Source of the DNA: an uncultured delta proteobacterium
GTDB lineage: Bacteria > Desulfobacterota > Binatia > Binatales > Binataceae
Reading direction: 5' to 3'
Length of the DNA stretch: 64,000 nt
NCBI GenBank assembly: GCA_963832395.1
Contig: CAWHTV010000004.1
Coordinates: 1,780 to 65,779 of the forward strand
In this document: piece by piece, positions 19,797 through 54,314 of the stretch
Numbering within the stretch: position 1 is the stretch's first letter
How the letters are laid out: the number at the start of each line of letters is the position of its first letter
Made by a program: the position numbers and the translations under genes
Notes under the pieces: model-generated
Told to the model about the DNA's origin: nothing
Databases searched by the model: none
The model's input: the letters and a program-made list of their open reading frames with translations, nothing else

Positions 19797-20907
19797 GTGA
19801 TTAAGAGAAACGCTCGGCATCCGCAACTGCTTTGCGCGTGGATTCTCGGGCTTGCCCTGACTATGTGGGCCACAAGTGCGTCGGCCAAGTGGTACGTGGT
19901 CGTCGGCACGCTGCCCAACAACATCGAGGTCGTCGACACCACCACCGACAAAGTGGTCAAGACCATCGCGCTGGAGGGCCAAGGACCGGTGCTCTCGGTC
20001 GCCACCGACCCGACCATGCCTCGCTACGCCTATGCAACGACCAATCTTGACCAGGCCATCGCGGTCGTCGACCTGGAACAGGGTAAGCAGGTCGCGACCT
20101 ACAAGCTCTCCAGCGATACCGAGATCGTACGGGTCGAGGCAACCAACCTGAATCCGAAGGGCGATCGGCTTTACGTCTACGAGCTGCCGCTGAAACAGAG
20201 TCTCGGCCGCTATCAGCACGAAGCGCCGCGGTTTCGCGTGTTCGACACCACTACCAACAAGGTGGTGAAGACGTTTCCCGCGCCTGAACAAAGCCTGTCG
20301 TTCGCGTTCTCGCCCGATGGCAAGCGGATATACACCTTCTGCATCGGCCAGGACATCATCGTACTCGATTCGGAAGACGGCCATGTTCTGGGCTCGATTC
20401 CACTCGCCCATCGGAACATTACGGGGATTCGCGCCACCTACGGCTTACCGGTACTAGCGAATTACCAGGAGCAGGATTACTTGCTCACCTTCGCGATAAT
20501 CGTCGAAGACTCGATAACCGACACCGATACTCTGTCGCTTGGGATTATCGACCTCAAACAGCAGAACCCGGAGTTGCAGGTTGTCGAGCTCGAACCCTTC
20601 GTCGAAGACTGGTACACGGTCGAAGGAATCGGCACCGCGCCTGACCTGCATAAGGCGTTCTTTGTGTGGAATGACCTGTGGAAGGTTGACTACAAGACCG
20701 GAAAAGAGAGAGGCGGTGGCTACATTGGCGAATAGTCAGGCGGTGCCGCTGATTCATCCCGACGGCAAGAAGCTGTACTGCGGCGGCCAATGGCACTCGC
20801 TCAACGTATATGACACCGAGACCCTGAAGCACATCACCGACGTCGAGCTCGGCCATTCGATGGCTGCGTCAGGGATGAGATTCATCAGGAGCGACAAGGA
20901 TCTGTAG
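19797..20907 (+). CDS. qhpB: QHNDH beta-subunit paralog (signal peptide + beta-propeller), frameshift near 20710
   Basis: Near-identical blocks with the in-cluster beta subunit at 37965-39108 (e.g. 'VVDLEQGKQVATYKLSSDTE', 'RNITGIRATYGLP', 'FAIIVEDSITDTDTLSLG', 'YCGGQWH'); signal peptide ends in ASA. Confidence 0.75.
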
Positions 20908-21087
20908 CGCGGCGGCGAAAATGCGCGCCGGCAAGTGGCTCAGCTCGACGTCCTGGCTGATTGCTCCGTCCACCCCCGCGCATTCTCGAGAACCGAGTAA
21001 CCTCCACGAACGCGTCCCGCGGATCCCACCTGACGCCATCGGAGCGAGCGTGCTGCGACAAGGTGTGCGTTTTCCCGAGGCGGCAAG

Positions 21088-22111
21088 GTGAACTGCGGTT
21101 CCGCGCCGGAGCCTGCTTCCTCGCCGGAGCAGAGACCGCCGGTGCCGGCCAACGCGCTCTGGAAAAGGGCGCTTCCGTATTTCGGGACACTGGTCATCTT
21201 CGCGCTCATCTTTTGGCGTATTCCGATCGCCAAAGTCGGTGAAGCGCTCGAGCATGTGCCAGTACTGAAGTTCTTCGGTGTATTCCTTCCCTTCTGCGTG
21301 CTCTACTGGATAATCGATTCCTTGTGTTTGACCTGGGTCGTTCGCCGATTCAACGCAGCACTGCGATTGCGCGACATCATGCCCATCCGCGCGAGCATGT
21401 ACCTGCTGTCGCTAATCAATAGCAATCTCGGGCAGGGCGGTGTCGCCTGGTACCTGCATCGCAAGACCGCGGTTCCGTTCCTCGAGATGCTGAGCTCGAT
21501 CCTGTTCATCGCCCTGATGGAGATATATCAGCTCTTCCTTTTCTCCACGCTGGGTGTGATTTTATATTCGCCGAATTCCCCCGCGCAGCTGGAGATCGTG
21601 CGTGTTCTCCGGGTTGCATACGTCATAGCATGGCTTGTGCTGGCCACGGTGATTTCTTTCTTCGCATATGCGCGTCGGAGCGATCGTGCGCGCGGCTGGA
21701 TCACCCGCGGCAGGGCCGGCTGCTATCACCACGACTTTTATGGCGGCCCGGCCTCTCGACTACGCGATCGTGCTCGGAATCAAAGCTCCCAGTTTTATGC
21801 TGTCAGTGATGACGCAATACTTCGCGCTCTCGCTGTATAGCATCCCGATTCCATTCGCCCAGTTGGTGCTGTTTCTTCCACTTGTGTTTCTCGCCGCGGC
21901 GCTACCGATCTCGGTTGCCCATCTGGGCACCAGCCAGGCGGCCTGGCTGCTTTTCTTTTCAGGTAGTGCGCCAGCGGCGAAAATCCTCGCGTACAGCCTC
22001 GCCGCGCATTTTACCTTCATGTTCTGCAATGGGTTGATCGGACTGTTCTATCTGCCGCGCGCGAGCCGCGAACTGACTACGCTCGGTGCAATAGCGCCGG
22101 GTGATGGATAA
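21088..22111 (+). CDS. Lysylphosphatidylglycerol synthase TM / flippase-like membrane protein, frameshift near 21720
   Basis: Multi-TM protein; 'SNLGQGGVAWYL', 'LPISVAHLGTSQAAW' resemble the LPG_synthase_TM family. Confidence 0.65.
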
Positions 22112-22243
22112 CTGCGGGCTGGGCAATTCGTCTGGCTAATCATGTCGTCAAAAGGACAGCACAAAAAACACAAACGGGAGTGTGAGAATAGGAGGCCGAA
22201 CAGCGTCCTTGACAGCGGCCTCCCGCTGATCGATAAACCGTGC

Positions 22244-22510
22244 ATGAAGCTCCAACATACCGCAGCGCTGGCGCTAACCGGCTGGTTTCTGATCACACCG
22301 CCGCCGCAGGCCAATGGTCACTACGACACCTCGGCGCCCTTGTCCCGGTGGAAAATCGAAGGAGGAGCCGGTACACGCAAAGAATGCAAGGAGACGCAAG
22401 CTCTTCTCACTTCCCGCGCCACTAAGGAGAGCCGCCCGAGCGATGTCGAAGCGGTAAAGGACGCCCAGTGCGTCCCGATGGATGATCCGCGCCTTCTAGG
22501 AAAACCGTAG
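22244..22510 (+). CDS. Small secreted hypothetical protein (WFLITPP...APLSxW domain, 2 Cys)
   Basis: Short N-terminal hydrophobic stretch; homologous to the C-terminus of 23374-24232. Confidence 0.6.
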   Translation: MKLQHTAALALTGWFLITPPPQANGHYDTSAPLSRWKIEGGAGTRKECKETQALLTSRATKESRPSDVEAVKDAQCVPMDDPRLLGKP

Positions 22511-22557
22511 ACGGATGCGATTCACGCAAAGAAATAGTATCGACGGAAGGAGAACCA

Positions 22558-23187
22558 GTGAATCGAACGCTCATTGGAATCAGTCGCAGCAAACAAGTGG
22601 CTATCGGGCATATATTCACGCGGCGGCAAATGATCGCCTGGAGTGCGATTGCGCTCGGTGGTTTGGCAATGGCGCCTACCGTGGCATTGGCGGATGCTTC
22701 CGCGGAATCGAATCCGGGTGGTAGAAAAACGGACGCTCAAGTTTCTCAACGCGACCTCGACGCGCTTTCAAAGGCCAGTGTTCTTTATATCGCCACCGTC
22801 CGCAAAGACGGTAACCAGAGCACGCCGGCACCGGTCTGGTTCACGGTCGCACCCGACAACGCGGTGCTTATTCAGACGCAGCCCACGACGTGGAAAGCCA
22901 AGCGGATTCGCCGTGGCAGTCCCGTGATCGTCTGGATAGGCAAGAAGAACGGTTCGGCATTCATCGGCAAAGCGGAAATAACCAACGATCCGGCAGTATC
23001 GCGCCAAATAGTCGAAGAGTTTCCGAAACGGTACTTAATGGCGCGGCTCGGGCTATATCGGCCGACCCAGGAGATGTTTGCCAAGGGCCAGATTCTCCCC
23101 ATAAAGATCACGCCGGTTCGCGATCTGTCTGAAGGATTCGCGTCTAACCCCGGCACTCCCGCTCCGAGCCTGGCCGGAGAACATTAA
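22558..23187 (+). CDS. PPOX/split beta-barrel (flavin/F420-binding) family protein with Tat-like signal
   Basis: 'YIATVRKDGNQSTPAPVWF', 'WKAKRIRRGSPV'; 'TRRQMI' then hydrophobic stretch then ALA. Confidence 0.75.
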   Translation: MNRTLIGISRSKQVAIGHIFTRRQMIAWSAIALGGLAMAPTVALADASAESNPGGRKTDAQVSQRDLDALSKASVLYIATVRKDGNQSTPAPVWFTVAPDNAVLIQTQPTTWKAKRIRRGSPVIVWIGKKNGSAFIGKAEITNDPAVSRQIVEEFPKRYLMARLGLYRPTQEMFAKGQILPIKITPVRDLSEGFASNPGTPAPSLAGEH

Positions 23188-23373
23188 CCGCCATAAGTGC
23201 CCGCCGCTATAGGATGCGACATCTGGATCCTAGAGACATGTAGTCGCCCGGGCCTCTCGAATCCGTGCCAGCTTTTTTTTGGGATCGGGCAACTGGGAGT
23301 GCGCAAAGTGAAAGCTTCTGGTATGTTGTTGTAAACATAGAATCGGTACTTACCTTCGGCTGGACGGCATTCG

Positions 23374-24232
23374 ATGAACCCTTCATTTCTCAGACACGTT
23401 TCCTGCGCCGGTCATCGACTCCGCGGATGGGCGGGAGTCTGGGTCAAAGCGTTACTTTTGTGCTATCTGCTGACGTTCGCGCGGCCTTTGACCATCGTGG
23501 CCGCCCCGGCCGGCGGCATGGCAGAACCGCAGAGCGGTCAACTAAGCCTCCCGCAGGGGATGGGCTGGGACGATTGGCAAGTGGTTCGCGACCAGCACTC
23601 CCAACGCGGAACGGTTAGGGTTCTCGTGCCCAAAGGCGAGGCAGCCGCCACTGCGAAAGTACGCGTGGTGCTTGTGCAGGGGCCAAAGCCGAGCTTTCGA
23701 TTCGCCTCAGGCGATCCTCGATAACATCGTTCAGACGGCGAAGCAGCAGTGTGAGAAGGTCAGCGCGCATTCGATCCGTAAAAGCGATGAGGATCTGATC
23801 TACGAACTACGGGGTTATGGGTGCGCGGGCCAAAAGGGCGAGCGCTATCTGCTGCAACGGATCGCCTTCATCAAAGAATGGGAGCTCCGAGTGACTTACG
23901 CCTCGATGAGCCCGACCGACGACTTGCCTTCTCCCGAAAAGGCGCAAGCCATCAAACTCCTGTCGTCGGTCACGATCGTAGCTGCTTCGAGTCCTAAGGC
24001 CTCTGCAGGCTGGTTTCTAATCACCCCGCCAAAAGCCAGTAGTCACTACGACACTTCGGCTCCCTTGTCGAAATGGAAAATCGAAGAGGGAGCAGGCTCG
24101 TTTGAAAAATGCAAAGAGCTTCAATCGTTTTTGAGCTCTCTCGTCCTCAAACAAGGCAACCCAAGCGACATCGAACAGGTAAAGGACGCTCGTTGTATCT
24201 CGATGGACGATCCAGTCCTCGAAGGAAACTAG
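23374..24232 (+). CDS. Secreted hypothetical protein with C-terminal WFLITPP domain, frameshift near 23695
   Basis: ORFs 23374-23724 and 23672-24232 join; C-terminus 'GWFLITPP..SHYDTSAPLSKWKIE...ARCISMDDP'. Confidence 0.55.
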
Positions 24233-24335
24233 GAACCCAGTCCAACACTGACGCGGCGAATGCCGTGGTATCATTGAGCGACTGCGGCGTCTTCCTCATG
24301 ACATACCTGCCCGAGCAGCAACCGAAGGAGAAGCA

Positions 24336-24971
24336 GTGAATCGGACACCCCCTGTAAGCGACCGCAGCGCGGCAGAGGTTATCGGCTACGCACTCACACG
24401 GCGGCAAATGATCGGCTTGGGCGCGATCGTGCTGAGCGGTTTGGCGATGGCACGCGGCGTCGCCCTGGCGGATCCTTCTGCTGAATCGAATCCGGATGGC
24501 ACGCAGACTGGTGTCTCGTTCCAGCGCGATATCGACGCACTCTCAAGTGCCAGCGTTCTTTATATCGCCACGGTCCGCAAAGACGGCAACCAGAGCACGG
24601 CGGCGCCAGTATGGTTCACCCTCGCGCCAGATCACCTGGTGCTTATTCAGACGCAGCCCACGACGTGGAAGGCAAAACGCATTCGCCGCGGCAGCCCTGT
24701 AATCGTCTGGATAGGCAAGAAGCACGGTCCGGCGTTTATCGGTAAGGCGGAAATAACCCACGATCCGGCAGTCGGCCACCAAATAGTGGAAGACTATCCC
24801 AAGAAGTATTTGATGGCGCGATTGGGGTTGAATCGCCCGACCCAGGAGATGTTCGACAAGGGTCAGGTCATTTCAATAAAAATCACGCCGGTTCGCGATT
24901 TACCTGACGGATTCGCTTCCGCGCCCGGCACGCCCGCGCCGAGCGTAGATGGCGAACACCAAAAACCCTGA
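24336..24971 (+). CDS. PPOX/split beta-barrel family protein with Tat-like signal (paralog 2)
   Basis: Highly similar to 22558-23187; 'TRRQMIGLGAIVLSGLAMARGVALA'. Confidence 0.75.
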   Translation: MNRTPPVSDRSAAEVIGYALTRRQMIGLGAIVLSGLAMARGVALADPSAESNPDGTQTGVSFQRDIDALSSASVLYIATVRKDGNQSTAAPVWFTLAPDHLVLIQTQPTTWKAKRIRRGSPVIVWIGKKHGPAFIGKAEITHDPAVGHQIVEDYPKKYLMARLGLNRPTQEMFDKGQVISIKITPVRDLPDGFASAPGTPAPSVDGEHQKP

Positions 24972-25019
24972 CGCGCGCCCTTCCGCGATGCCGCTTCCGA
25001 AATACTAGAGATTAGAGGA

Positions 25020-25611
25020 ATGCGGCAAACGCAGTGGCTATCGGACGTGAGGTACGTCGCGGAGCCTGCACGAATCGCGAACCTGCTTAGTGCGTCGCGA
25101 TTCGTACTTGGCGCCGCGTGGTTGGTCGCTTTTGTATATGGCGCCCGGCGTCCCGAAATTCTCGGCTCAATTGCTCTGAGCGCCGCAATTTCCGATTTCG
25201 TCGACGGCCGCGTCGCGCGCCGGACGCACTCCACTGACGCTTTCGGACGCTGGCTCGACAACCTGGCCGACGTTATTCTTCGTCCTGACGGCTCTCACGT
25301 GTGAGGTCTTGGCGGGAGCAATCCCCGCTTACATACCTGCTTTGATCGCCGCTTCGTTTGTTCAATATGCAATCGATTCGGTACTGATTAGCGGCTCTTC
25401 CGCTCCAGTGAAAAGCCGACTCGGGCATTGGGGTGGTGTTGTCAATTTTGCCCTGGTCCTTCTGCTCGCGTTCGCTCCATATCCTCGATGGCCTGGCATG
25501 CTGGTCCGCGAAGCGTCGCCGCTTATCGCCATTTTCTATCTGCTCGCGATTCTCGAGCGTACGTTCAAGGCTACGGCCGGTGCGGATCGAAACGATCCGA
25601 GAAACGTCTAA
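25020..25611 (+). CDS. CDP-alcohol phosphatidyltransferase family protein, frameshift near 25280
   Basis: 'ANLLSASR', signature 'SDFVDGRVARR....FGRWLDNLAD'. Confidence 0.82.
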
Positions 25612-25647
25612 ATGTTGATTGTCTAACTAACTCTGTGACTGGCGTTT

Positions 25648-25693
25648 AAAAAGCGACCGGGCAGCGGAGCTTCCTTCGCTCCGCTGCCCGGTC
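25648..25693 (-). terminator. Intrinsic terminator of the DUF1329-DUF1302 operon
   Basis: Perfect 16-bp stem gaccgggcagcggagc / gctccgctgcccggtc, 7-nt loop, then a U-tract on the minus strand (aaaaa at 25648-25652). Confidence 0.8.
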
Positions 25694-25775
25694 CAATGCT
25701 TCGGCGTCGAATGTCCAGAGCTTACAGCGCCGTTGCTCTCGTCGACTTTACTGTTTTCCCTTGGCCAGGATGAAA

Positions 25776-27544
25776 TTATATTGGAACGACATATACAACA
25801 TACTCTTGCCCTTGAAACCGCCGCCGGCAAAGTGAGTTAAGCCGGTCGTTCCCGAGAATACCAATATAGCCGAGTGTCGCGAAGTATTTGTTAGTCCACG
25901 GCGGCGTCATCATCAAAGTGGGGAACAGCAGCGTCGTGTTGCCCGAGGGATTCCAGATCATCGTGTAGGTCGGCAGGATGGCGCCCCACCACAAGCTGGT
26001 GTTGGCGCTGAACAGAATCTGTTCCTCGTTGTGGCGCCAGCGTTCGGCATAGGTGTCAGTAGACCAGGTTTTTCCGTAGCCAACGATAGTATACTGATTC
26101 CACTCCAGATTGGTGGTCAACGTGCCGGTGCTGGTCAGCCAGGGGACATAGAGACCGTCCATGTCGAGCGCGACCAGTGTGTTGATCGTGCTCTTGTCGA
26201 CCACGCGCGTTCTGAACATCTATGTCGGTGGTGTTGATCGGCGTCCGGTCCTGAAACATCCCTTCGGTCCGGAGCACGAAAGGCACGTTGGAGAGAATCG
26301 CTCCCGGCAGATAGATCGGCCGGTTCAGCGTCGCGCCGATATCGTTGAACTGCGGAAATCCGAATTGCAGATATTGAGGGTCGCCCGAGCATTGCCTACC
26401 ACGTAACCCGGCGCGCCCGGCGTGCTGAACCTTCGTTGAACTGGTGGCCATGCCAAGTATATCATCGGTGATTTCGGCGTTCTCCACCAACGTATGAATG
26501 CGGAAGCCCTCGGTCGAACTGCCCAACTGGTCGCCCGGCAGGCGGTAGCTAAAGAAGGGCGACGCGAAGTTGCCCGGCGCTACGCAGCGGCTCTGCACAA
26601 CTTGCCCGCACAATTGAGGAAAGGAGGTCATGTTGTTCGGCACCCCGGGCGTTCCGAACGAGACGGAGTTGGTTGCGTCTCGAAAGCGGCCCGACGATAC
26701 CAGAGTGAATGGCGCAGATCAGCGAAACCGACCCGGCGACGTCGTGCTGTCCGTCGTACCAGTTGCTGTGCGGATTTGAGGATCCTGGTTCGGGGTGTCA
26801 ACCGAGGGGTTGTACATCGGCTGCCAGGCTGGCGTCCAAACTCCTTCGACGAAGTTCGCAGTGAGTGGCCCGAAATCGGGGAACTTGTATATCGGATGCA
26901 CCATCCACAGAGGCATCCGCGACTGCTCGAGGTTGGCGAAGCCGAAGTTCCAGGTGAAATCCTGCGGGTTGATCACGTCGCCTACGCGGAAGGCCAGCGA
27001 CTCACCCCAAGTCACGATCTGGCGGCCCAACGAACAGCGTGAGTGGTCCAGTCGTGTTTTTCCAGTACGCGTCCCTGACGATGTACGGGTTGTAGTAATC
27101 CCCATGTCTGTCAGGCCGGCTCTGTACTCGTACGGGTAGGACGGCTCGTAGACTCCCCAGCCGCGAACAAAGAATCGATTGTTGCCGTTCAGGATGTAGT
27201 TGATGTCTACCTGCAGCCAGTTACGTTCGATCGCCAGCGAGTTCTTGCTCCTGTTGTAGCGGATGTTGTTGGATTGGACCCACATCCCGGTGGTATTGCT
27301 AATGAAGCCCGAGACCGATAGTCCCTTGATGCGGTCCCGGCGTCTCGCTGAAATCAACCACGGCATGTTGCTGCCATACTACCGCGTCATGAAAGACGCC
27401 GGTGAATCCCGATTCCTGCGTCTGGTCCTGCGCGAGGACTCCACTCGCCGAAAGGCCAGCCATCGCGAGGAATGCCAAGGCGATCACACCCAACCCCTCG
27501 ATTATTCGTCCTGTCTTTTTCATAGCCTCATGCCCCGCCAACAC
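25776..27544 (-). CDS. DUF1302-family outer-membrane beta-barrel protein (frameshifted)
   Basis: Signal peptide; 'ERNWLQVDINY', 'GRQIVTWGESLAFRVGDVINPQD', 'LEQSRMPLWM'; C-terminal aromatic barrel strand; usual synteny with MMPL/YCF48/DUF1329. Confidence 0.7.
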
Positions 27545-27602: not shown

Positions 27603-30000
27603 CTAGTCCACTGCCACTTGCTCCTTGTGACGCCCTACGTCTTCCACGCCGCCAAAAATGAACCGCGGCCGAGCCCACGCTATATAAGCAGGAAGTATCG
27701 AAAGTCCCATGATCACGTTGGTGAACATCAGGATGATTAGCAGCACGCTCATTTCGTTATGGAATAGCACGGGCGAGAATACCCATGGTGCGAGTCCACC
27801 GATGATGACCGAGAACGTCGCGAGCACCGCCGCCCCCGTCCCTCTAAGGGCAGTTGTTATTGCATCCTCGAGGGTCTTGCCTTCCATGCACTCATCCATG
27901 ATCCGCGAGACCGTGTAAATTCCATAGTCAACGCCAAGGCCGATTCCAAGAGAAATGACCGGAATCGTATCGATGGTGATGCCGATGTCCATCGCCCTCA
28001 TGTAGATGAACGCGGCGAAATTCGCCGCGATACACGAGATCACGAACAGCAGCCCGGCGACGATCGAACGATAGGTAATCGCGCAGAACAGGAATACCAC
28101 TCCGAGCACGAAGGTTATGTTGAGAAAGTCGATTTCGTAGAGTACGTCATTGGCGGATGCATAGAGACCCGCGATTCCGCCGAGATACAGCACCTCGATC
28201 TTATCGAAGGCCGGGTCCGTGTGTTTCCGGCTGTTGACGAAATCCGCAAGTTGTTCCTGTACGCGGGTCAGAGTCGAATAGGTATGGTCGCGCAAGCAGC
28301 ACTCGCATGCATGCGTCGTTGTTCGTCAACGATAGCCAGGCATCAGCTTCACCTGGCGCGGTTCCGGCGACGAAATAGCGTGAAGAGTGCGAACGAGTCA
28401 TCGGTGCTAGCCGGGATGGTCCGATATTTCGGCTGGCCGTAATGAAACATCCGGTTGAAGGGCTCGATGATGTCGGGCACGACCGAGATTACTCTGTCTA
28501 CATCCGGGTCCTGCAGCAGATGATTGGTCAGATCACGCTGAACGCGCAGCACGTCGGGCGACATGATATCGCCCGCTTCTCTGAACAGATGTTTTGCGTT
28601 CTCCTTGGCGCGAATGATGACCCAGCCTTCGTCGAGGGGAAAGACGCGCCTTACGGCATTGATATCCTGGTTGACCTTGGCGTCCTGGCGATACAGCGGC
28701 GTTCCGGGTTGGCTGTATCCAATCTTGGCGCGTACTCCCGCAATGAACCCGACCACGATGACCAGGCCGACTCCTGCCAGTGCCCCTTCTCGTGCAAGTC
28801 CGGGGGTGACGGGGAAGTCCACCGACCAATCCGCCAATTTGTCCAGCCACGGCCAGCTGCTTGCCCTGCTCGCTTGCCTTCAGCGGCGGCGGGGTCTTGA
28901 GATAGCTCATCATGATCGGCTGGAAAATGAACACCATCGTGAGACTGCCGCCCAGCCATACGGCGCCCGACGAAGCGACGTGCTGCAACGACGGAATACC
29001 GCCAAATGAGATGAACACGATGCCGGCGATATCCGCGAGAATCGAAAGCATTCCCGGCGGCAACATCAGAGTAGTAGTGGCCGCGATGGAGCTGTGCTTG
29101 TCGTAGTTGCGCGCCTCCAACTCGTCGTAATAGCGTCCCTGCCACTGGATGCCATGGCTCATATCGCGCGCGGTCAATATGAAGCGAATCACCAGCATCA
29201 CGGGGTCGAACTCGAACCCTTCGAGCCCGATAAATCCAAGACCCCAGACTGTCGCCAGGGTGCCGGTCACCAGTGGCGCCCACCAGGTGCTGCGACCTCG
29301 AAAGAAGGCATACAGGATGAGAATCATGATGCCGTCGGAGATGAAGAAAATCGTGACCAGCGTGGGCAGATAGTAATACCCATAGCCGCGAATCATCGGC
29401 TCGCCGGCGGCAAAGACATCCGTGTTGCTATCCGAGTATTTTTTTACGATCTCCTGAACTTTATTGAACAGCTCGTGATAGCTTAGCCGTCCTTCCGTAA
29501 AGGAGGCGACGATCGCGGCGCTGCGGCCGTCATCGCTTACGAGATATCTGATTTCCTGCCGATGGATGTTTATCTGACGGCGAAGCTCGTCGATATCAGC
29601 CTTGGTCTTAGGCACATCCGGATACATGTAGGTCTTGGAGACCAGATTGCCCGGAAGCGCGGTGACGTAGGTGACGCGATAGGAAGACAACGAACGGATC
29701 GACTGATGGATTACGGCGGGAAGCAGATCGACGTCGAGACTGATATCCTGGATTTTCTTCAGGGTTTTCTCATTGTAGATGTCACCTTGCTTGACCTGCA
29801 CCATCAAGGTCAGCGTCTGCGCGCCGCCGTATCGGCCATAGTCATGGTAGAGCCGGACGTAGGGATGATTGCGCGGGAAAAAGTCGACAAAACTGGTGGC
29901 GATGGTAAGTTTACTTACGCCGTAGCCGAAGTAGGCGGTAATGGCCAGGAGAAAGTATGCCAATCGACGCCCGATGCTTTAATATAAATTCGCCGATCAC
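27603..30000 (-). CDS. MMPL/RND-family transporter (frameshifted), paralog of 47668-50070
   Basis: 'FVDFFPRNHPYV', 'AGEPMIRG', 'ILTARDMSH', 'ISLGIGLGVDYGIY'; GTG start overlaps the upstream TGA. Confidence 0.85.
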
Positions 30001-32433: not shown

Positions 32434-32580
32434 GACGCACCTCTGTATTTTTAAGCTTTCGCGCATCTCTCCATCCTTAATCTTCGACCTTTAGAATTCG
32501 AAAACGTAACGCAATCGTCAGAATCGACACACGGAAAACCCGTCCGCGTTTTATGTGGATACTCCTCTTTCGACCGACAA

Positions 32581-41121: not shown

Positions 41122-41149
41122 AGATTTTAAGCCTCTGAGCGATCACTTA

Positions 41150-42781: not shown

Positions 42782-42993
42782 TCGATGCAGCCTCCCTTGC
42801 TCGTTCGGAAACTCATCCCTAGCGCGAACCAAAAAAAAAGAAAAGCGAATTCGCTAGGATTGTCTCAACTCCGCCCGCGAGCCCATCGACCCGTGCAACC
42901 TGCCGGCCGATAAGTCGGCGCTCAGTGACTAACTGTCCTGACTAACTTCCCTGTCTCTTCATCGCCCGGCGGGCGGAAATTCTTGGAAGTCGA

Positions 42994-43009
42994 AGCAATT
43001 GTTGCGCCA
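42994..43009 (-). promoter_or_regulatory. Sigma54 (-24/-12) promoter candidate upstream of qhpA
   Basis: Minus strand TGGCGC-AACAA-TTGCT, about 210 bp upstream of the qhpA ATG. Confidence 0.6.
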
Positions 43010-43028
43010 AAATTTCGCGGCCGGCCGT

Positions 43029-45172: not shown

Positions 45173-45176
45173 TCTC

Positions 45177-46486
45177 CTATCCCACCGAGAGATTCAGCTC
45201 CGCACTCATCAGCCGCTTCCATTCCTGATAGTAGGCCCGGAAGTGGAGGTCGTCGCTTATCGGGCCGGTAACGACGCCCTGCGCGTCGGTCCGCTCCGCG
45301 GCCCGTGTGCAGATGGCGGCTGATATCGATCCACTCGAGCTCCGGAATCGCCAGGCCCTGCTGGCAGGCCTCGAAGTTCGCGGCAATCGTCGACCTCGCC
45401 GAAATTTGGAAAATCCTCCTGCGTTCGCATTCGCAGCACGTTGATTTCCTCCGGCACGCCGCTCAAGCGTGGTCGCGTACCACGTCACCTGGACGCGGTC
45501 GACCGCCAGCGGCTCGACCACCTGGATCTGGTTGCCGATGATCAGGAGGTTGGGAAAGACGTTGAGGTTCATCCCGGAGCCGACCGCCACCTCCAGCAGC
45601 CGGTTGGCTTCCTCGTCGCCTAGCCGCTGGCGAAGTTGAGCTTCGTAGGTTTCGCGCCCGGGCTGCGGCCGCTGGCGCTTCCAGGCGGAATCCGCATGCA
45701 TCTCGGGCCGCTGATCGATAAAGGTATGGCCGTTGCCGAGCGACTGCGTGTACATCGCGCAATCGTCGGGGTCGCTCGTTCCATAGTACGACATGTCGCG
45801 GTCGGGCCCATGGCGCCGCGCGGTCATCAATAGCAGCGAGCGATGCGAAAAGGGCGGATGATAACCGTCGCCCGCGTTGTCGTAGACCATTTTCCAGTTG
45901 GCCCGCATGACCATCCGATGAGCGGAGCTGCGCACCACCACCTCCGCGCGCGGATAGCGATCCAGCCATTGGTCGATGAGCAGGCGCGCCGCGCCCAGGT
46001 GCTCCACCAGGTCCGGCGCCTCGCGATTCAACGTGCCGAAAATAAATCCGCGGTAGGTCTCCAGGCGCGCAATCCTCGCCAGATCATAGCTGGCCAAGCT
46101 TAAAGCCGGGCCCGTAAGCGTCGTCGCCTGGCACGGAGACGCATTGCCCGCTATTGCTGTACGTCCATCCGTGATAGCCGCAGGTGAAATACCGCGCCGA
46201 GCCTTCGCGCAGGCGGCACACCGTCGCGGCACGATGCGAGCATCGGTTCAGCAGCGCATTGATTTTGCCGCTGCCATCGCGGGTCAGGATGATCGGCCGG
46301 AGACCCAGATTGCGCGACGACGAAATCATTAGGCTTGCTGATTTCGCTCTCGTGGCCCAGGTAGACCCACGTGCCGCCGAAAATCTTGATCATCTCCTCG
46401 GCAAAGATCGAGGGGTCGGTGTAGAGCGAGCGATGCACCCGCCCTTCCTGCACCAGGTGATCCCATTGGGAGGCCGCGCTATGCAT
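45177..46486 (-). CDS. Rieske ring-hydroxylating dioxygenase alpha subunit (AtdA3/TdnA1-like), frameshifted
   Basis: Rieske 'NRCSHR...FTCGYHGW'; 'NWKMVYDNAGDGYHPPFSH', 'DQRPEMH...QRPQPGRE', 'GMNLNVFPNLLIIGNQIQV', 'RMRTQEDFP..GEVDD'. Confidence 0.88.
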
Positions 46487-46558
46487 ACGCTCCTGATGCG
46501 TTGGATGAACCAGTCTGCGAGAGCGCTCCGCTCACGTTCTCCGCGCTCCGCTTGGACC

Positions 46559-47086
46559 CTACGCCGATGCCCTGATGACGTTGCCCTGCGCGTCGAGCTT
46601 GAGCCCGGTCTGTTTCGCCTTCTCCAGCACTTCGGGCTGCCATGACACCCGGCCGGCATCGGTGCCGCCCAGAATTGCCATCAGGTGAGCATCCTCCGTG
46701 CCAGCGTTGCGAAAACCGCGCATAATCCCCGGCGGCACCGAAATGGTGTCCCACGCCTCGAGAATCAGCTCGTTCTCGCCATGATCGCCCCAGATGATTG
46801 CCCATCGGCCCGACAACGGCGTGAAGACCTCGACCGTCGTATGGCTGTGCAATGCCGCGCCCTTGCCTGGTTCGGCCTTGACGTAAGTCAGGTTGAAGTC
46901 GCGCGCGTCGGCGATGGCCGGTTTGAGTGATGGATCCTCGGTCACGCCGGCGCCGATCACGTTGTAGATGAGGCGCTCATGGCCGGGAATCTTGCTGTCG
47001 ACAAAGGCTTGCTCGCTGGGCCGCAATTGTTTGAAGCGCGCAACCCGCTTGAGCATCTCTTCTTTCGAGACTTGCAGCTTAGCCAT
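46559..47086 (-). CDS. Cupin domain protein
   Basis: 'PGKGAALHSHTTVEVF', 'DTISVPPGIMRGFRN'. Confidence 0.85.
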   Translation of the reverse strand: MAKLQVSKEEMLKRVARFKQLRPSEQAFVDSKIPGHERLIYNVIGAGVTEDPSLKPAIADARDFNLTYVKAEPGKGAALHSHTTVEVFTPLSGRWAIIWGDHGENELILEAWDTISVPPGIMRGFRNAGTEDAHLMAILGGTDAGRVSWQPEVLEKAKQTGLKLDAQGNVIRASA

Positions 47087-47667: not shown

Positions 47668-50070
47668 ATGATCGGCGACAAGATACTCAAGTACCGCGCA
47701 CCGATAGGCATTCTGCTGCTAGCGGTCACGGCTTACTTTGGCTACGGGATTAGCAAGCTCACGATCGGCACCAGCTTCGTCGATTTCTTTCCGCGCAATC
47801 ATCCTTACGTCCAGCTCTATCATACCTACAACCGCTACGGTGAGGCGCAGACCCTCACCCTGATGATGCAGGTCAAGCATGGCGACATTTACAATGAAAA
47901 AATCCTGAAGAAAATCCAGGATCTCACTTTTGAAGTTGACTTGCTGCCCGCAGTCATCCATCAGTCCGTCCGTTCGCTGGCCTCATATCGGGTCACCTAC
48001 GCGTCGCCGGTACCCGGCAACCTGATCTCGCAGACCTATATGTATCCGAATGTGCCGACGACGCAGGTCGGGATCGACGAGCTTAAGCGCCAACTCGATA
48101 TTCATCGGCAGGAGATCAGATACCTCGTCAGCGACGACGGCCGCAGTGCCGCCGTGGTCGCTTCGTTCACTGAGAGCCGTCTTAACTACCACGATTTGTT
48201 TTATGCGGTTCAGCGGCTGGCCAAAAAGTACTCGAATAACGATACGAATGTATACCTTGCCGGCGAGCCGGTGATCCGGGGCTATGGGTATTACTACCTG
48301 CCTGTGATTATCGCGATCTTCTTCATCTCCGACGGCATTATGATTCTGGTTCTGTATATCTTCTTCAGAAACCGCAGCACCTGGTGGGCGCCATTGGTGA
48401 CCGGCACCCTGGCGACGGTCTGGGGTCTCGGGTTCATCGGACTCGAAGGCTTTGAGTTCGACCCTGTGATGCTGGTGATTCGTTTCGTGCTGACCGCGCG
48501 CGACATGGGGCATGCTATCCAGTGGCAAGGCCGCTACTACGATGAACTCGAGGCGCGCGGCTACGACAAGCACGGCGCCATCGCCGCGACGACCACGCTG
48601 ATGCTCGCGCCGGGCTTGCTTTCGATCCTGGCCGACATCGCGGGCATCGTTTTCATCTCCTTTGGCGGCATTCCGTCCCTGCAGCACGTGGCGTCTTCGG
48701 GCGCGGTATGGCTCGGTGGCAGTCTCACGATGGTGTTTATTTTTCAGCCCATCATGATGAGCTACCTCCCGACCCCGCAGCCTCGCAGGATAGTGCGTGG
48801 GCGAGAGGCCGCATCACGAACATGGATGCAACACCTGGTCGACTCGCTAGTGACGTTTCCGGTAGCCTCCGGACCCGCGCGGGGCTGGGCGCTCGGAGCC
48901 GTGGGCCTTCTGATCGTGACGGGACTCGTCGCAGGCCTGCGGGCCAAAATCGGGTACAGCCAGCCAGGCACGCCGCTCTACAGGCAAAGCGCCAAAGTAA
49001 ATCGGGACATGGAAGCCGTGAGCCGCGTGTTCCCAATCGACGAGGGCTGGGTCATCATCCGGGCCCGGCAAGATACCAAGGACACTTTCAAGGAAGTCGG
49101 CGATATCCTTTCGCCTGAAGCAATTCGTGTTCAGCGCGACCTAGTGAACTACCTGATGCTCGACACAGAGGTGGACCGGGTCATCTCAGTGGTCCCGGAC
49201 ATCATCGAGCCTTTCAACCGGATGTTTCATTACGCCGAGCCCAGGTATCGAACGGTTCCCGCGACGGTCGACGACGCATACGGGCTGTTCACACTGTTCG
49301 TGATGGGCACAGCGCCGGGTGAGGCCGACTGGTGGCTCTCGATGTTGAACAACGATGCGTGCATGCGAGTGCTGCTGCGCGACCACACCTATGAGACATT
49401 GAGCCGTCTGCAGCGGCGGCTGGACGAGTTTGTAACTGAGCGAAGCCGTTCAGATCCGGCCTTCCGGCATATCGATGTCCTCTATCTGGGCGGCATCGCG
49501 GGACTTTACGCGGCGGCCAACGACGTCCTTTATCAGATTGATTTTCTGAATATCACGTTTGTGCTGGCAGTGGTGTTCCTGTTCTGCGCAGTGACCTACC
49601 GCTCGATAGTGGCGGGTCTGCTGTTCGTAACCTCCTGCATCGCGGCGAATTTCGCCGCCTTCATATATATGCGCGTGATGGATATAGGCATCACGATCTA
49701 TACCATTCCTGTCATTTCACTGGGTATCGGACTGGGTGTCGATTATGGAATATATACAATATCGCGAGTCGTCGACGAGTGCGCCAAGGGACGGGATCTC
49801 GAAGACGCAATCACGACCGCGCTCAGGGGTACCGGCGCCGCGGTGCTGGCGACGTTCTCGGTGATTGTGGGCGGACTGGCGCCGTGGATGTTCTCGCCGG
49901 TGCTGTTCCATCACCAGATGGCGGTGCTTCTGATTATATTGATGTTCACCAACCTGGTAATGGGGCTTTCGATATTACCCGCATACGTCGCCTGGGCGCG
50001 GCCGCGCTTTATTTTCGCAGGCGGAGCTACGGAGGAACCGGGACCAAGGGAGCACATAGCCGTGGATTGA
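47668..50070 (+). CDS. MMPL/RND-family transporter (intact, 800 aa)
   Basis: Two-repeat multi-TM architecture; 'FVDFFPRNHPYV', 'ISLGIGLGVDYGIY'; close paralog of 27603-30000. Confidence 0.9.
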   Translation: MIGDKILKYRAPIGILLLAVTAYFGYGISKLTIGTSFVDFFPRNHPYVQLYHTYNRYGEAQTLTLMMQVKHGDIYNEKILKKIQDLTFEVDLLPAVIHQSVRSLASYRVTYASPVPGNLISQTYMYPNVPTTQVGIDELKRQLDIHRQEIRYLVSDDGRSAAVVASFTESRLNYHDLFYAVQRLAKKYSNNDTNVYLAGEPVIRGYGYYYLPVIIAIFFISDGIMILVLYIFFRNRSTWWAPLVTGTLATVWGLGFIGLEGFEFDPVMLVIRFVLTARDMGHAIQWQGRYYDELEARGYDKHGAIAATTTLMLAPGLLSILADIAGIVFISFGGIPSLQHVASSGAVWLGGSLTMVFIFQPIMMSYLPTPQPRRIVRGREAASRTWMQHLVDSLVTFPVASGPARGWALGAVGLLIVTGLVAGLRAKIGYSQPGTPLYRQSAKVNRDMEAVSRVFPIDEGWVIIRARQDTKDTFKEVGDILSPEAIRVQRDLVNYLMLDTEVDRVISVVPDIIEPFNRMFHYAEPRYRTVPATVDDAYGLFTLFVMGTAPGEADWWLSMLNNDACMRVLLRDHTYETLSRLQRRLDEFVTERSRSDPAFRHIDVLYLGGIAGLYAAANDVLYQIDFLNITFVLAVVFLFCAVTYRSIVAGLLFVTSCIAANFAAFIYMRVMDIGITIYTIPVISLGIGLGVDYGIYTISRVVDECAKGRDLEDAITTALRGTGAAVLATFSVIVGGLAPWMFSPVLFHHQMAVLLIILMFTNLVMGLSILPAYVAWARPRFIFAGGATEEPGPREHIAVD

Positions 50071-50694: not shown

Positions 50695-52143
50695 TCAACC
50701 GAGCAAGGGCGGGCGCCGCAAATGGAGCGGCCGACTGCGCTCGATAACTGCCGCGGCACGCAATAGCTGAGCCTCGCTTCCCATCCATCCGATGATCTGG
50801 ACGCCGACCGGAAGACCACTTCCGGTAAAGCCAATCGGCACGGAAACCGCCGGCTGTCCCGTCATGTTCCACGGGTAGGTGTACGGACACCATCGCCAGT
50901 CCTCGTCGGCAAACCCTTCTGGGACATAGCGCTGCACCGCGTAGGGCGGCACCGGCATGACCGGTCCAACAAGCAGGTCGAAGCGGTTGAAGAATGCCTT
51001 CGCCGCGACTGCGATCGCCATGCGCTGTTCCTGAGCATGGCAGTAAGCGGCGAGCGACGTCGTCCGGCCCGAGGCGGCCACGCTCAGCAGCAAGGGATCG
51101 AGCAAGACGTGTTTCTCGGCGTCAAACCCGTCGACGGTTGCTGCGCATCCAGTCTCCCAAAAGACCTGGAACGGTTCGAAGGGATCGACAGGCCATTTCG
51201 GGCTCTCGTCCATAACTTCGGCGCCGGCATCCGCCAGAATCGGACCCGCTTCGGCGACCAACGCGTCGACTTCTCGATTCACCAGCGGTGCTGTGCAGCC
51301 AAGTCTCGCCGAGGTCGCAATCCGTAGGCCGGACAGATCGGACGCACCCAGGTCCTTCGGCATCGCGAAAGGAACCGGCCAAGCGAACGGATCCCGAGGC
51401 TCTGGGCGGGCCATCACCTCGAGCATGAGCGCAGCGTCGGCGACCGTCCGAGACATCGGGCCGACGACCGAGTGGGGCATATCGACATCCGGCGGGAATG
51501 CCGGTACCCGGCCGAAACCAGGCTTTAGACCAAAAACATTGGTGTATGAGGCCGGAATGCGGATCGAGCCGGCGCCGTCACTGCCGACCGCCAATGGGCC
51601 GAAACCCAAAGCGAGCGCTGCTGCCGCGCCACCCGACGACCCTCCAGGAGTCTTCGTTAGATCATAGGGATTCGCGGTTACGCCATGGACGCGGCTGCGA
51701 GTGACGAGCCTGCAACCGGCCTCCGGTGTCGCCGTCTTGGCAAGGAATACGGCACCAGCTTCCCGCAGGCGCGCGACACAGGGTGTGTCTTCCGCCGCAG
51801 GTTTGACCGGATCGAGCGCGAGCGATCCCCGGCGGCGCGGCCAGCCCGCAACGGCAGACAGGTCCTTGATCGTAACCGGCACGCCATCAAGCGTCGAAAG
51901 GGGGGCTCCTGCCGCGTAACGGGCCTCCGCCGCCTTAGCCTGGGCAAGAGTTAGTACCGGATCGACAAAAACAATCGCATTGACGGGAGGACCGAGGGCT
52001 TCGATGCGCGAGATTAAGGCCCGCGCCACCTCGACCGGCGACAAGCTCCGGCGGCGAAAGGCCTCGGCCAACACGACGACGTCGAGAAACGCGACGTCAT
52101 CTCCGGGCGCTACTACCGCAGGTGATCGATCTGACGTCGGCAC
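50695..52143 (-). CDS. Amidase signature family enzyme
   Basis: 'GVPVTIKD', 'PGGSSGGAAAA', 'GSDGAGSIRIPAS', 'GLKP'. Confidence 0.92.
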   Translation of the reverse strand: MPTSDRSPAVVAPGDDVAFLDVVVLAEAFRRRSLSPVEVARALISRIEALGPPVNAIVFVDPVLTLAQAKAAEARYAAGAPLSTLDGVPVTIKDLSAVAGWPRRRGSLALDPVKPAAEDTPCVARLREAGAVFLAKTATPEAGCRLVTRSRVHGVTANPYDLTKTPGGSSGGAAAALALGFGPLAVGSDGAGSIRIPASYTNVFGLKPGFGRVPAFPPDVDMPHSVVGPMSRTVADAALMLEVMARPEPRDPFAWPVPFAMPKDLGASDLSGLRIATSARLGCTAPLVNREVDALVAEAGPILADAGAEVMDESPKWPVDPFEPFQVFWETGCAATVDGFDAEKHVLLDPLLLSVAASGRTTSLAAYCHAQEQRMAIAVAAKAFFNRFDLLVGPVMPVPPYAVQRYVPEGFADEDWRWCPYTYPWNMTGQPAVSVPIGFTGSGLPVGVQIIGWMGSEAQLLRAAAVIERSRPLHLRRPPLLG

Positions 52144-52154
52144 GAACTGACTCT

Positions 52155-53540
52155 TTAATATAGTTCGAAATATTCGGCGATTTCGGCTGCCGGAATCTCA
52201 TCGCGCAGACGTGCCGCCTCTTGCCGCTTCATCGCGAGATAGACGCGAACGAATTCCTCGCCGAGCGTTTCGCGCAACGCCCCATCCGCCTCGAAGGCAT
52301 CGAGCGCATCGTCAATTTCCGTCGGCAGTTTGGCGTAGCGCGAATCGTCTTCCTTCGGACCGGAGCCGGCCGGCAGAAGCTCCCGCCTTTGCCCAACCCC
52401 CAGCAAACCAGCGGCGATTGTCACCGCTGCAACGAGATAAGGATTCGAAAGCGCGGAAGGCACTCTGACCTCCATATGGGTCGACTGGTCGCGGCTCGCC
52501 TTGACGCGCACGCTCGCCGACCGGTCCTGTATGCCCCAGGAAATGTTGGATGGTGCATAAGTTCGAGGCCGGATCCGGCGGTAGCAATTCGGCGTCGGGC
52601 TCCAAATAGCCATCGCTGCGGGCGCATGGTCGAGGACGCCCTGGATGAAACTCCTGAACGTAGTCGAGAGGCCGTTTTCCTGGTTGTTATCCAGAAAAAC
52701 GTTGGAGTCCGCGTATTTATCGAGCAAGGAGAGGTGGAAATGGGCGCAACTTCCGGAGATGCCCTTGTAGGGCTTCGTCATGAAGGTGGCGAGGAGCCCG
52801 TGCTTCGCAAGATACTCTTTCACGGTGCCCTTGAAGACAAAGGCGCGGTCCGAAGCAGCTACGCCATCAAGAGGCCCATAGTTGATCTCGACCTGTCCAG
52901 GTCCGTGCTCGACATTGTAAGTAATAATGTCGATGCCTTGAGCCTGGAGTACTCTGATCAAACTGTCTATAGCCGGAAACTGGTGAGTCCGCGCGGTAGC
53001 GAAGATCGGCTGCCCGCCGTAAATCGGCTTACGTGTCGCCGCATCGACCACATAGAACTCGTACTCGTGCCCCATTTTCACGACGTAGCCGAGAGAATCG
53101 GCCAGCGCTAGCATCTTCTTCAAGACAAGACGCGGTGCCGCCATCTGAGGGCGCCCATCGTACCACATGGTATCGCAGATGACCCTGCCGGTCTTTTCCA
53201 GCCAGGGAACCGGAGACAAAGTGTCCTGGTCGGGGATCATCACGCAGTCTTGATAGTTCATTTCCTCGTTGTAACCGGAATTGCGGATCGGAATCGAATA
53301 GCTATCGAGCGCGACCGCGCCGCCGTAGAGATTGAGGCCGGTGCACAGATAATCGGCGATGTGGTTAACCGGGACCGTCTTGCCCCGGCTCATCCCCGCC
53401 ATATCCGCCAGCTCGAAACGGACAAAGTCGAGGCCGGCCGTCTTGACCTTTTCGACGAAGGCGCTGGCCTCGTCCGGCGTGGCGAGCGCGACCTTTGGCG
53501 TGATATCGACTTTAGCACTATCTTCCCCGGTCGTCGGCAT
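52155..53540 (-). CDS. Glutamine-synthetase-like gamma-glutamyl-amine ligase (PuuA/GlnA3-4-like)
   Basis: 'DMAGMSRGK', 'GHEYEFY', 'EHGPGQVEIN', 'TFMTKP', 'NCYRRI', 'EVRVP..LSNPYL'. Confidence 0.88.
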   Translation of the reverse strand: MPTTGEDSAKVDITPKVALATPDEASAFVEKVKTAGLDFVRFELADMAGMSRGKTVPVNHIADYLCTGLNLYGGAVALDSYSIPIRNSGYNEEMNYQDCVMIPDQDTLSPVPWLEKTGRVICDTMWYDGRPQMAAPRLVLKKMLALADSLGYVVKMGHEYEFYVVDAATRKPIYGGQPIFATARTHQFPAIDSLIRVLQAQGIDIITYNVEHGPGQVEINYGPLDGVAASDRAFVFKGTVKEYLAKHGLLATFMTKPYKGISGSCAHFHLSLLDKYADSNVFLDNNQENGLSTTFRSFIQGVLDHAPAAMAIWSPTPNCYRRIRPRTYAPSNISWGIQDRSASVRVKASRDQSTHMEVRVPSALSNPYLVAAVTIAAGLLGVGQRRELLPAGSGPKEDDSRYAKLPTEIDDALDAFEADGALRETLGEEFVRVYLAMKRQEAARLRDEIPAAEIAEYFELY

Positions 53541-53579
53541 TTGAAGGCTTCCCTCTTTGAATAACAGAGACCAACATCG

Positions 53580-54314
53580 TCAGCCGGCTGCCGGGGAGGT
53601 ATTCGCGAGAATGGCCGAAAGGTTCTCGTTCATCCGCCTCGCCGCGGCGCGGAAAATGGGGAGCTTGGGCACAACCACGCTGGAAAGGCGCGCCGCTTCC
53701 TCTGCGCCCAGCGCCTGCTCGAGGCTCGCCTTGTATTCTGGAATTTTTTCCCAGTCGGACACGGTCGTAGTTGTAAGTTCGCAATGATATTGGAAGCCAT
53801 ACGCATAGCGGCCCCAACGGATGGCCTGCACCGGACACGCAGCGTTGGTGGCAAGAATCTCCGCGCCGTCGGGTAGTCTGGAAACCTCGGCTCCGTGCCA
53901 TTGAAAGCTTTCGATCCGGGGGCTGAAGCCAGCAAGGATCGGGTCTCTTTGTCCAGCGGGTCTGAGTTCGACCTCCGCCAGACCGACCTCCGGCCGGGCC
54001 ATCGGGGTCACCTTGCCTCCCAGAGCCTCGGCGAGCAGCTGATGCCCCAAACAAATTCCCAGGAAGGGCCGACCGAGATCCTTAACCCAATGACGGATAG
54101 TGGCCTTTTCAGAAATTAACCAGGGATGGAGGTCCTCCTGCCATACATCCATCGGGCCGCCCATCACGACCAGCAGATCGAAACCCTCCAGCGACGGAAT
54201 CGAATCTCCCGCGTCAAGTTCGACAGCCACCCACTCGTGGCCACTCTCGGCCCAGAATTCGCGAAAAACGCCCGGATGCTCTACTTTGACATGTTGGAAA
54301 ACTAGGATGCGCAT
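53580..54314 (-). CDS. Class I glutamine amidotransferase (gamma-glutamyl hydrolase-like)
   Basis: 'QHV..EHPG', 'MGGPMDV', 'LGICLGHQL', 'FQYHCE'. Confidence 0.88.
   Translation of the reverse strand: MRILVFQHVKVEHPGVFREFWAESGHEWVAVELDAGDSIPSLEGFDLLVVMGGPMDVWQEDLHPWLISEKATIRHWVKDLGRPFLGICLGHQLLAEALGGKVTPMARPEVGLAEVELRPAGQRDPILAGFSPRIESFQWHGAEVSRLPDGAEILATNAACPVQAIRWGRYAYGFQYHCELTTTTVSDWEKIPEYKASLEQALGAEEAARLSSVVVPKLPIFRAAARRMNENLSAILANTSPAAG

Follow-up and report, generated by a model that had tools for sequence, protein, structure and literature searches.

Separately inherited amine modules, probably, in one neighbourhood: an aniline-dioxygenase-type gene trio beside a diverged quinohemoprotein amine dehydrogenase locus in an uncultured soil Binatia

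When several gene sets that each point to amine metabolism lie side by side, do they form one pathway or only share a neighbourhood? The question is raised by a 64-kb stretch of DNA (hereafter the window, to which all coordinates refer) from the genome of an uncultured soil member of the Binatia (G000). Between positions 19797 and 54314, two borders that our analysis upheld, this region (the island) carries an alpha/beta Rieske oxygenase encoded together with a glutamine synthetase (GS)-like ligase (the A1-A2-Q trio), the qhp genes of a quinohemoprotein amine dehydrogenase (QHNDH), a four-gene cassette around a transporter of the MMPL family and, on the flanks, a second qhpB-like gene, a second MMPL gene and a GATase-GS-amidase operon. 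A preliminary description of the sequence had joined these parts into a single pathway that would serve hydrophobic or bifunctional amines (aminoalkyl-anilines, for example), with uptake by the MMPL transporter, periplasmic deamination of the alkylamine by QHNDH and, finally, gamma-glutamylation and ring dioxygenation of the arylamine. Its account of gene content, order, strands and borders was confirmed by Pfam and NCBIfam searches and by tblastn of the proteins of a relative with an intact orthologous locus (G001, 88% nucleotide identity), which was used for annotation. Its module assignments hold as well; it did not mention the broken reading frames that run through the region, and its DUF1302 call is borderline. 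As to function, the region would seem, on balance, to be a variable catabolic neighbourhood in which separately inherited amine modules lie next to each other, each presumably working as its family does.

This reading is carried by the distribution of the modules among relatives. Genomes of one genus are kin, and counts among them are given as a pattern, not as independent statistics. In a DNA search of 41 related genomes, the 20-kb core was found to be colinear in G001 (88% identity) and in a further relative, G009 (84%). The trio and the qhp genes lie next to each other, with one direction and one gene order, in seven genomes of the genus (G000, G001, G002, G003, G008, G014 and G016), separated by 110-530 nucleotides, and all modules fall within 35 kb in G000 and G001. 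G009 has an intact qhp locus and the cassette, and between its cupin gene and qhpA lies a decayed 3' remnant of the ligase gene (positions 1480-2260 of locus L003, contig G009:C6), which is 71% identical to G001 over an alignment with 39 gaps and is interrupted by stops in every frame; the trio of G009 is located on another contig, C3. Read from its sequence, this remnant is the trace of a natural event in which the A1-A2-Q trio was deleted. G007 has qhpA-D-C-E, with neither the trio nor a qhpB at the locus, and QhpC is absent from G005, G012 and G013. Only G000, G001 and G009 have the cassette next to qhpG; G002 has a 47%-identical DUF1329 gene on the other strand at the cassette site, and the best match in G014 is ~485 kb away.

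Outside the genus, the modules are found apart. A RHOa (Rieske alpha subunit) ortholog with at least 54% identity occurs in eight genomes of the class sample, five of which also encode QhpC. In seven of these genomes (all but G171) and on contig C3 of G009, the surroundings of the trio were inspected over 16-20 kb, and none of the eight loci had a qhp gene in that range. Likewise, none of the 18 qhp loci fetched elsewhere in the class had a trio ortholog nearby, with only a 38% paralogue ~10 kb away in L105. Together with G009 and G007, the spread of the cassette and the loss from G001 of the flanking GS-like gene GS2 and nearly all of the neighbouring amidase gene (an operon that is present in G009), these counts indicate that the modules are gained, lost and moved separately. 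The single pathway proposed earlier was accordingly not borne out. It can draw on the close, co-directional arrangement of the trio and qhpADCBE in seven genomes and on the compact layout of G000 and G001. Against it, the modules are unlinked in G009, in G007 and in all more distant genomes examined, which is largely the observation that the preliminary description had itself named as speaking against a common pathway; the cassette is adjacent in only three genomes; and the qhp genes keep a conserved upstream element of their own, since the ~80 nucleotides before qhpA (a T-rich tract, CGCTA and then GGGAGG) are conserved in nine loci, including the trio-less ones of G009 and G007. At the same junction, two genus-level loci, L013 (13445-13975) and L015 (13444-13973), have an extra open reading frame (ORF) of ~100 codons inserted between the ligase gene and qhpA. 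Neither a published precedent for an aniline dioxygenase combined with a quinohemoprotein nor a published disproof was found in the searchable literature. We hold one pathway for such bifunctional amines, and with it the proposed sequence of steps, to be distinctly improbable.

Several points nevertheless weigh against a neighbourhood of independent modules. The conserved adjacency of the trio and qhp within the genus could reflect co-transcription or shared regulation, and three amine-related modules within 35 kb look like more than a random assortment. In the ligase-qhpA intergenic region (42782-43028, minus strand), no terminator was predicted, although the scan of the intact locus gave no more sites than expected from shuffled sequence (4 promoter-like, 17 terminator-like) and is thus uninformative on operon borders. 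Neither a regulator nor a reductase was found in the island. A T-like GATase gene stands beside the trio in six of the eight loci inspected around it, and in G270 an amidase gene precedes it, such that the trio may yet have a link to the GATase-GS2-amidase operon on the flank. Finally, the separate function that we propose is read off gene distribution alone. No tRNA genes were found in a tRNA scan, hence no clue to an integration site, and a repeat scan yielded only the paralogue pairs and one tandem duplication described below, with no flanking direct repeats that would mark a mobile island.

The conserved adjacency and orientation would also suit two parallel, co-regulated entry routes for one amine class in the genus, a periplasmic one by QHNDH and a cytoplasmic one by glutamylation and dioxygenation. 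Both modules release nitrogen from amines, and methylamine, for which two routes are known, offers a parallel. Moreover, ligases of the NpaA1 type are reported to be broad in substrate range (PMC11335346). This idea has to contend with the same distribution data, since in G009 qhp was retained and the trio next to it relocated or lost, and with the failure to find a shared regulator gene in the island. It thus appears unlikely, if plausible enough to be kept in view, and we continue to favour separately inherited modules, with the trio and qhp probably transcribed apart.

What would each module do? The Rieske pair and the ligase, all on the minus strand (RHOa, or A1, about 45177-46500; RHOb, or A2, the beta subunit, 44579-45091; ligase 43029-44513), belong, by their predicted proteins, to the aniline/naphthylamine dioxygenase family. 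RHOa is 50-58% identical to large subunits encoded on the plasmids of chloroaniline, linuron, isoproturon and 1-naphthylamine degraders (53-58% for the plasmid-borne aniline/chloroaniline dioxygenases), with the next tier of matches at 37%, and the G001 orthologs of RHOa, RHOb and the ligase share 53%, 46% and 48% identity with A1, A2 and Q of plasmid pTB30. Both the Rieske and the catalytic domain (PF00355, PF00848) are present in the G001 ortholog of RHOa, RHOb matches PF00866 with 96.8 bits, and the best solved relative of the ligase is 8wwu (426 bits). This structure is that of NpaA1, a broad-range 1-naphthylamine/aniline gamma-glutamyl ligase in which F75', F86' and W235 are reported to line an aromatic tunnel and E232 and E234 to hold the amino group (PMC11335346). 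With an offset of +15 to NpaA1 numbering, worked out from four anchor residues, the ligase of the window keeps all five of these residues; V201 is replaced by His and M81 by Val.

The trio recurs widely: a Q-type ligase gene adjoins RHOa in all 16 loci with a RHOa of at least 54% identity (L011-L026), which span Binatia, a 'Methylomirabilota' metagenome-assembled genome (MAG), 'Aldehydirespirator', Gammaproteobacteria and Salinisphaerales MAGs. It shares with AtdA1-A5, TdnQTA1A2B, DcaQTA1A2B and NpaA1-A5 the joint encoding of an alpha/beta Rieske oxygenase and a GS-like ligase. It differs from them in gene order (A1-A2-Q, as compared to Q-T-A1-A2-B-R on pTB30), in the lack of a reductase gene (B), a LysR regulator gene and an adjacent T-type GATase gene, and in its host, an uncultured soil Binatia rather than a xenobiotic-degrading proteobacterium. 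A reductase gene (B/A5) was found neither in the locus nor in any of the 16 trio loci, and the sole reductase match in G000 is weak (35% identity, 100 bits, contig C9). T of pTB30 had no tblastn match in G000 at an E value of 1e-10 or better, and no T-type GATase gene is adjacent to the trio; a T-like protein from Corynebacterium matches the flank GATase (36% over 161 amino acids). The T-type component NpaA2 was reportedly dispensable in the published 1-naphthylamine system (PMC11335346). In the scheme we propose, the ligase would gamma-glutamylate an arylamine in the cytoplasm, the Rieske oxygenase would then dihydroxylate the ring to a catechol with a reductase supplied from elsewhere in the genome, and the ring would be cleaved by an unlinked catechol 2,3-dioxygenase. 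Such an enzyme, passing the equivalog cut-off, is encoded in all five genus genomes searched, unlinked to the island; in G000 its gene lies on the same contig, ~740 kb away, and intradiol dioxygenases are present in genus genomes as well.

A second Q-type GS-like ligase paralogue is found in G000 (C2:130522-131963; 44-48% identity to pTB30 Q), frameshifted and with no Rieske genes beside it. The Cupin_2 gene that precedes RHOa (46559-47086, minus strand; PF07883), which has no NCBIfam match, was considered as a part of the dioxygenase module and rejected, since among the trio loci it stands beside RHOa only in G000 and G001. It is located elsewhere in G007 and G004, and on account of this variable adjacency it probably does not belong to the module.

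The second amine module comprises qhpA, encoding the dihaem alpha subunit (41150-42781), qhpD, the radical SAM/SPASM maturase (39645-41140), qhpC, the gamma subunit (39268-39618), qhpB, the beta-subunit propeller (37965-39170), and qhpE, a frameshifted subtilisin-like protease gene (36968-37855), all on the minus strand, together with qhpF, an ABC exporter with its permease fused to the ATPase (35073-36910), and qhpG, the flavin monooxygenase for formation of the cysteine tryptophylquinone (CTQ) cofactor (32779-34263), both on the plus strand. NCBIfam scores were measured on the G001 orthologs. Cut-offs were passed by QhpA (TIGR03908, 366.8 bits versus 274; domains PF09100 and PF09099), QhpD (TIGR03906, 541 versus 453), QhpC (NF037958, 124.6 versus 50; PF08992, 97.6 bits) and QhpG (NF049967, 252.2 versus 240). 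QhpB fell below its cut-off (best match TIGR03907, 155.6 versus 223.2), and QhpE just missed it (best match NF049966, QH_SP, 156.4 versus 165). QhpF was assigned by position and ABC exporter architecture only (PF00664), as its matches to Type I secretion and MsbA-like NCBIfam models were all below cut-off. The sequence of QhpA includes two CXXCH motifs and a signal peptide. Aligned to 1jju_C, QhpC retains C7, E16, C27, D33, C37, C41, W43 and D49, which we take to be the four cysteines, the tryptophan of CTQ and the three acidic sites of the Cys-Asp/Glu thioether cross-links; the mature peptide is intact in the window and identical to that of G001. No regulator domain that would mark a qhpR gene was detected among the island ORFs scanned with Pfam and NCBIfam.

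Counterparts of qhpA, D, C, E, F and G of Paracoccus denitrificans (qhpADCBEFGR, which we take to be the gene order there) and of the QHNDH of Pseudomonas putida (1jju, 1jmx) are present, along with a probable one of qhpB, and the gamma subunit keeps its CTQ and thioether residues. The locus departs from these systems in having qhpF and qhpG on the opposite strand with a further gene between them, in the low scores of QhpB and QhpE and in its QhpC, which scores ~100 bits against PF08992 as compared to ~148 bits in canonical-type loci. Across the class, QhpC was present in 54 of 301 genomes sampled, including 43 of 48 in one family (f8), five of eight in another (f2) and three of 49 in the window's own, and its PF08992 scores form two groups, one at ~148 bits (f2 and a few others) and one at ~100 bits (f8 and the window's genus). 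The QHNDH of the window accordingly shares a clade with that of f8, where the loci fetched have the order FGE-fold gene, qhpG (minus), qhpF, qhpE (minus), qhpADCB. By sequence criteria, the qhp genes are a true and, it seems, complete, if diverged, QHNDH set to which one further gene is recurrently added, rather than an enzyme of a new kind, and the system would be expected to oxidise primary amines to aldehydes in the periplasm. Two QhpC matches were seen in 17 of the 54 QhpC-positive genomes, 16 of them in f8; in the f8 loci L097 (G126) and L098 (G250), a second qhpA-qhpC-qhpB set without its own qhpD lies 2-3 kb downstream of a full qhp locus.

The recurrent extra gene (34229-34966, minus strand), intact in the window, encodes a protein with the complete fold of the formylglycine-generating enzyme (FGE; PF03781, 221 bits; ~160 bits against human and bacterial FGE chains) and no signal peptide. 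Of the two catalytic cysteines of FGE, which we take to be Cys336 and Cys341, alignment with human FGE chains shows the first replaced by Leu and the second kept. The gene is convergent with qhpG, whose 3' end it overlaps, in the window's genus and in four of the seven f8 loci in which the region is covered (L091, L092, L093 and L098, of G031, G058, G085 and G250). No copy was seen next to qhpG in the loci fetched from G049 and G142 and in the second locus of G228, and the three f2 qhp loci fetched lack the gene. Its conserved partner is qhpG, in contrast to the sulfatase of a genuine FGE. Besides FGE itself, the closest known proteins are those with an FGE fold and no FGE activity (pFGE/SUMF2, PvdO, the C-terminal domain of EgtB). 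An accessory role in the QHNDH of this clade is possible for its product. A bolder combination would make the FGE-fold protein a new maturation factor of the CTQ gamma subunit and have the trio recruited before the variant qhp operon as one amine-induced unit, a proposal that we regard as quite unlikely. If true, a single natural aromatic diamine would be attacked at both of its nitrogen groups by the periplasmic and cytoplasmic routes, or the two routes would serve one class of amines.

The preliminary description knew of no report of these modules in one locus, in agreement with our failure to find their juxtaposition in the searchable literature, which left most subscription journals and supplements out of scope; within the same limits on journals, Binatota with a (quinohemoprotein) amine dehydrogenase gave no match either. 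Nothing here is categorically new, the A1-A2-Q trio without a reductase and the qhp clade with its FGE-fold partner being variants of known systems. An arylamine gamma-glutamylation/dioxygenase module and a diverged QHNDH clade are, however, now placed in uncultured soil Binatia, a hint that arylamine breakdown occurs naturally and is more than a reaction to xenobiotics, and concrete genes are available for expression. The locus also provides a worked example of how a striking juxtaposition is shown to be modular by natural loss and rearrangement in relatives.

The third module, the transporter cassette, consists of four contiguous, co-directional genes on the minus strand, encoding a DUF1302-like outer-membrane protein (25751-27544; AmeA position), an MMPL/HAE3 transporter of the RND (resistance-nodulation-division) superfamily (27606-29999; AmeD position), a BNR/YCF48-like periplasmic propeller (29996-31002; AmeC position) and a DUF1329/LolA-like periplasmic protein (31084-32448; AmeB position). 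The 579-amino-acid G001 ortholog of the first scores 22.6 bits (E value 6.6e-5) against PF06980, just under the cut-off of 23.2. The other matches are PF03176 for the transporter (69 bits in G001), with the window copy 90-95% identical across four frames, PF14870 for the propeller (110.5 bits in G001) and PF07044 for the DUF1329 protein (93.9 bits for the window protein, 111.3 for that of G001). This make-up is the same as that of AmeABCD of Castellaniella defragrans and of the DUF1302-DUF1329-BNR-RND cofitness cluster of Shewanella, Kangiella and Pseudomonas; the order, DUF1329-BNR-RND-DUF1302, differs from AmeABCD. The one tested homologue, AmeABCD, is reported to mediate monoterpene efflux and tolerance (PMC6394551). 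Other published proposals are export of a cell-wall component (10.1101/072470) and ester hydrolysis (10.1101/2020.07.04.188060), and cassettes of this type have already been described in catabolic islands (10.1101/072470). Uptake by the MMPL cassette, as assumed by the single-pathway model, therefore found no backing, in that the tested homologue exports and the roles given in these sources do not include uptake. As an AmeABCD-type HAE3 RND cassette, it may move a hydrophobic compound across the envelope in either direction. BNR and HAE3/MMPL genes (27-30% identity) also lie 4-7 kb upstream of A1-A2-Q in the gammaproteobacterial loci L021, L023 and L024, an observation indicating that this type of transporter recurs by the trio in unrelated lineages.

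Are these genes functional in the first place? Open frames between ~20 and 47 kb are mostly short, with long ORFs to either side (ORF listing and GC3-based gene call), and a Pfam scan of the ORF pieces recovered all families named in the preliminary description as fragments, among them a 230-amino-acid MMPL piece, a 300-amino-acid QhpA piece covering domains III and IV and the catalytic domain of Rieske alpha with no Rieske domain attached. Mapped to the window by tblastn, G001 proteins extend over two to five reading frames per gene at 75-98% identity. Alignment with the intact G001 locus revealed frameshifting indels in 13 of the 15 island genes, the exceptions being the cupin and FGE-fold genes, with a total of 45 insertions versus 7 deletions. 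Nearly all breaks consist of one base inserted in the window; in 15 of the 45 insertions, the added base equals a neighbouring one. Insertions number five each in RHOa, qhpA and the BNR gene (the last with one deletion), three each in the ligase gene, qhpF and qhpG, seven in qhpD, six in qhpB (with two deletions), four in the MMPL gene and ten in the DUF1302-like gene (with three deletions). RHOb and qhpC have a single indel at the 5' end, such that a long ORF remains.

Real decay, with the frameshifts turning the island genes of this strain into pseudogenes, would agree with the local nature of the damage. The insertion-dense zone covers ~36 kb (10281-46500), with 45 insertions in island genes, 30 in its left part and 10 frameshifting deletions in total, and the right flank is almost clean (five insertions, two deletions). 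The cover by open frames of at least 250 codons in three 10-kb bins is 0.29, 0.62 and 0.39 here, compared to a genome median of 0.80 and a 5th percentile of 0.46. The insertion bias speaks against decay, as do the single nonsense substitution in the 15 genes and a dN/dS of 0.06-0.20 after removal of indel columns, on a par with that of intact right-flank genes (0.09-0.32). Moreover, the zone also breaks the gene of a cyclic beta-1,2-glucan synthase (10281-19013, minus strand; 2953 amino acids in G001), with 17 insertions and no deletions. The completeness of the genome (76.9%, in 13 contigs) fits patchy consensus errors, and further low-ORF patches occur on C2 near 220 kb and C10 near 10 kb. 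Soil contigs from four runs of three studies (X1, X2, X4 and X5) omit one base at 39703, 39964, 40139, 40344, 40479, 40671, 40952 and 41128, over the stretch (39703-41140) in which the insertions in qhpD are missing from them, and add one at 39521, all of these sites being differences between the window and G001. Being only 90-95% alike to the window, these contigs stem from other strains, a point that leaves room for decay, and they were used solely for the question of the extra bases. The search of public runs supports no claim about habitat or strain, as each of 20 runs holds at most 0.13 of the sampled words. Based on the strong purifying selection, the insertion bias and the restriction of the indels to this assembly, the frame breaks are probably local consensus errors rather than gene decay, which we consider very improbable. 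An alternative genetic code or programmed frameshifting was set aside as the cause, as relatives lack the indels, which are single bases scattered along the sequence. With ~36 kb of assembly affected by insertion errors, automatic annotation would call these genes pseudogenes. The glucan synthase gene carries GH94 supersandwich and catalytic domains and a glucoamylase-like domain.

On the right flank, the GATase (53580-54335), GS2 (a GS-like ligase, 52155-53540) and amidase-signature (50695-52143) genes, all on the minus strand and assigned by Pfam, match only generic NCBIfam models, all below equivalog cut-offs; the set may serve the turnover of gamma-glutamyl-amides or amides. Next to it, an intact second HAE3/MMPL gene (47668-50070, plus strand; PF03176; TIGR00921, HAE3, 106 bits, below cut-off) is solitary, with no DUF1329, BNR or DUF1302 partners, and its product shares 77% amino acid identity with the island MMPL protein.

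The left border is formed by qhpB2 (19797-20904, plus strand), a second qhpB-like beta-propeller gene with a signal peptide and one frameshift near 20700, whose G001 ortholog scores 151 bits against TIGR03907 (QH_beta; cut-off 223). Its product is ~74% identical to island QhpB. It is conserved (88-93% amino acid identity) in G005:C12 and G013:C9 (L113, L115), and its presence in these genomes without QhpC makes it doubtful as a QHNDH-specific gene. In G007, where qhpB is missing between qhpC and qhpE (L104), an unlinked paralogue may supply the beta subunit. The two paralogue pairs appear as inverted repeats, 19878-20905 versus 37997-39028 for qhpB2/qhpB (80-87% nucleotide identity) and 27647-29951 versus 47716-50023 for the MMPL genes, with both pairs in the range of 71-87%. 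One large inverted duplication was rejected as their common origin, since their mirror centres differ; for the same reason, the equal spacing of 17.76 kb is taken as coincidental.

Downstream of qhpB2, a co-directional run of lipid-type genes headed by it (21088-25700, plus strand), annotated by Pfam and by mapping to G001 and with no evident amine-related function among its Pfam matches, encodes an LPG_synthase_TM-like protein, an 87-amino-acid ORF, a PNPOx-like protein, a protein of 285 amino acids without an assigned function, a second PNPOx-like protein and a fragment of a CDP-alcohol phosphatidyltransferase. Here, direct repeats (22536-23046 and 24314-24821; 73-83% nucleotide identity, spacing ~1776 nucleotides) reveal a tandem duplication that yields the two PNPOx-like genes around the gene for the 285-amino-acid protein.

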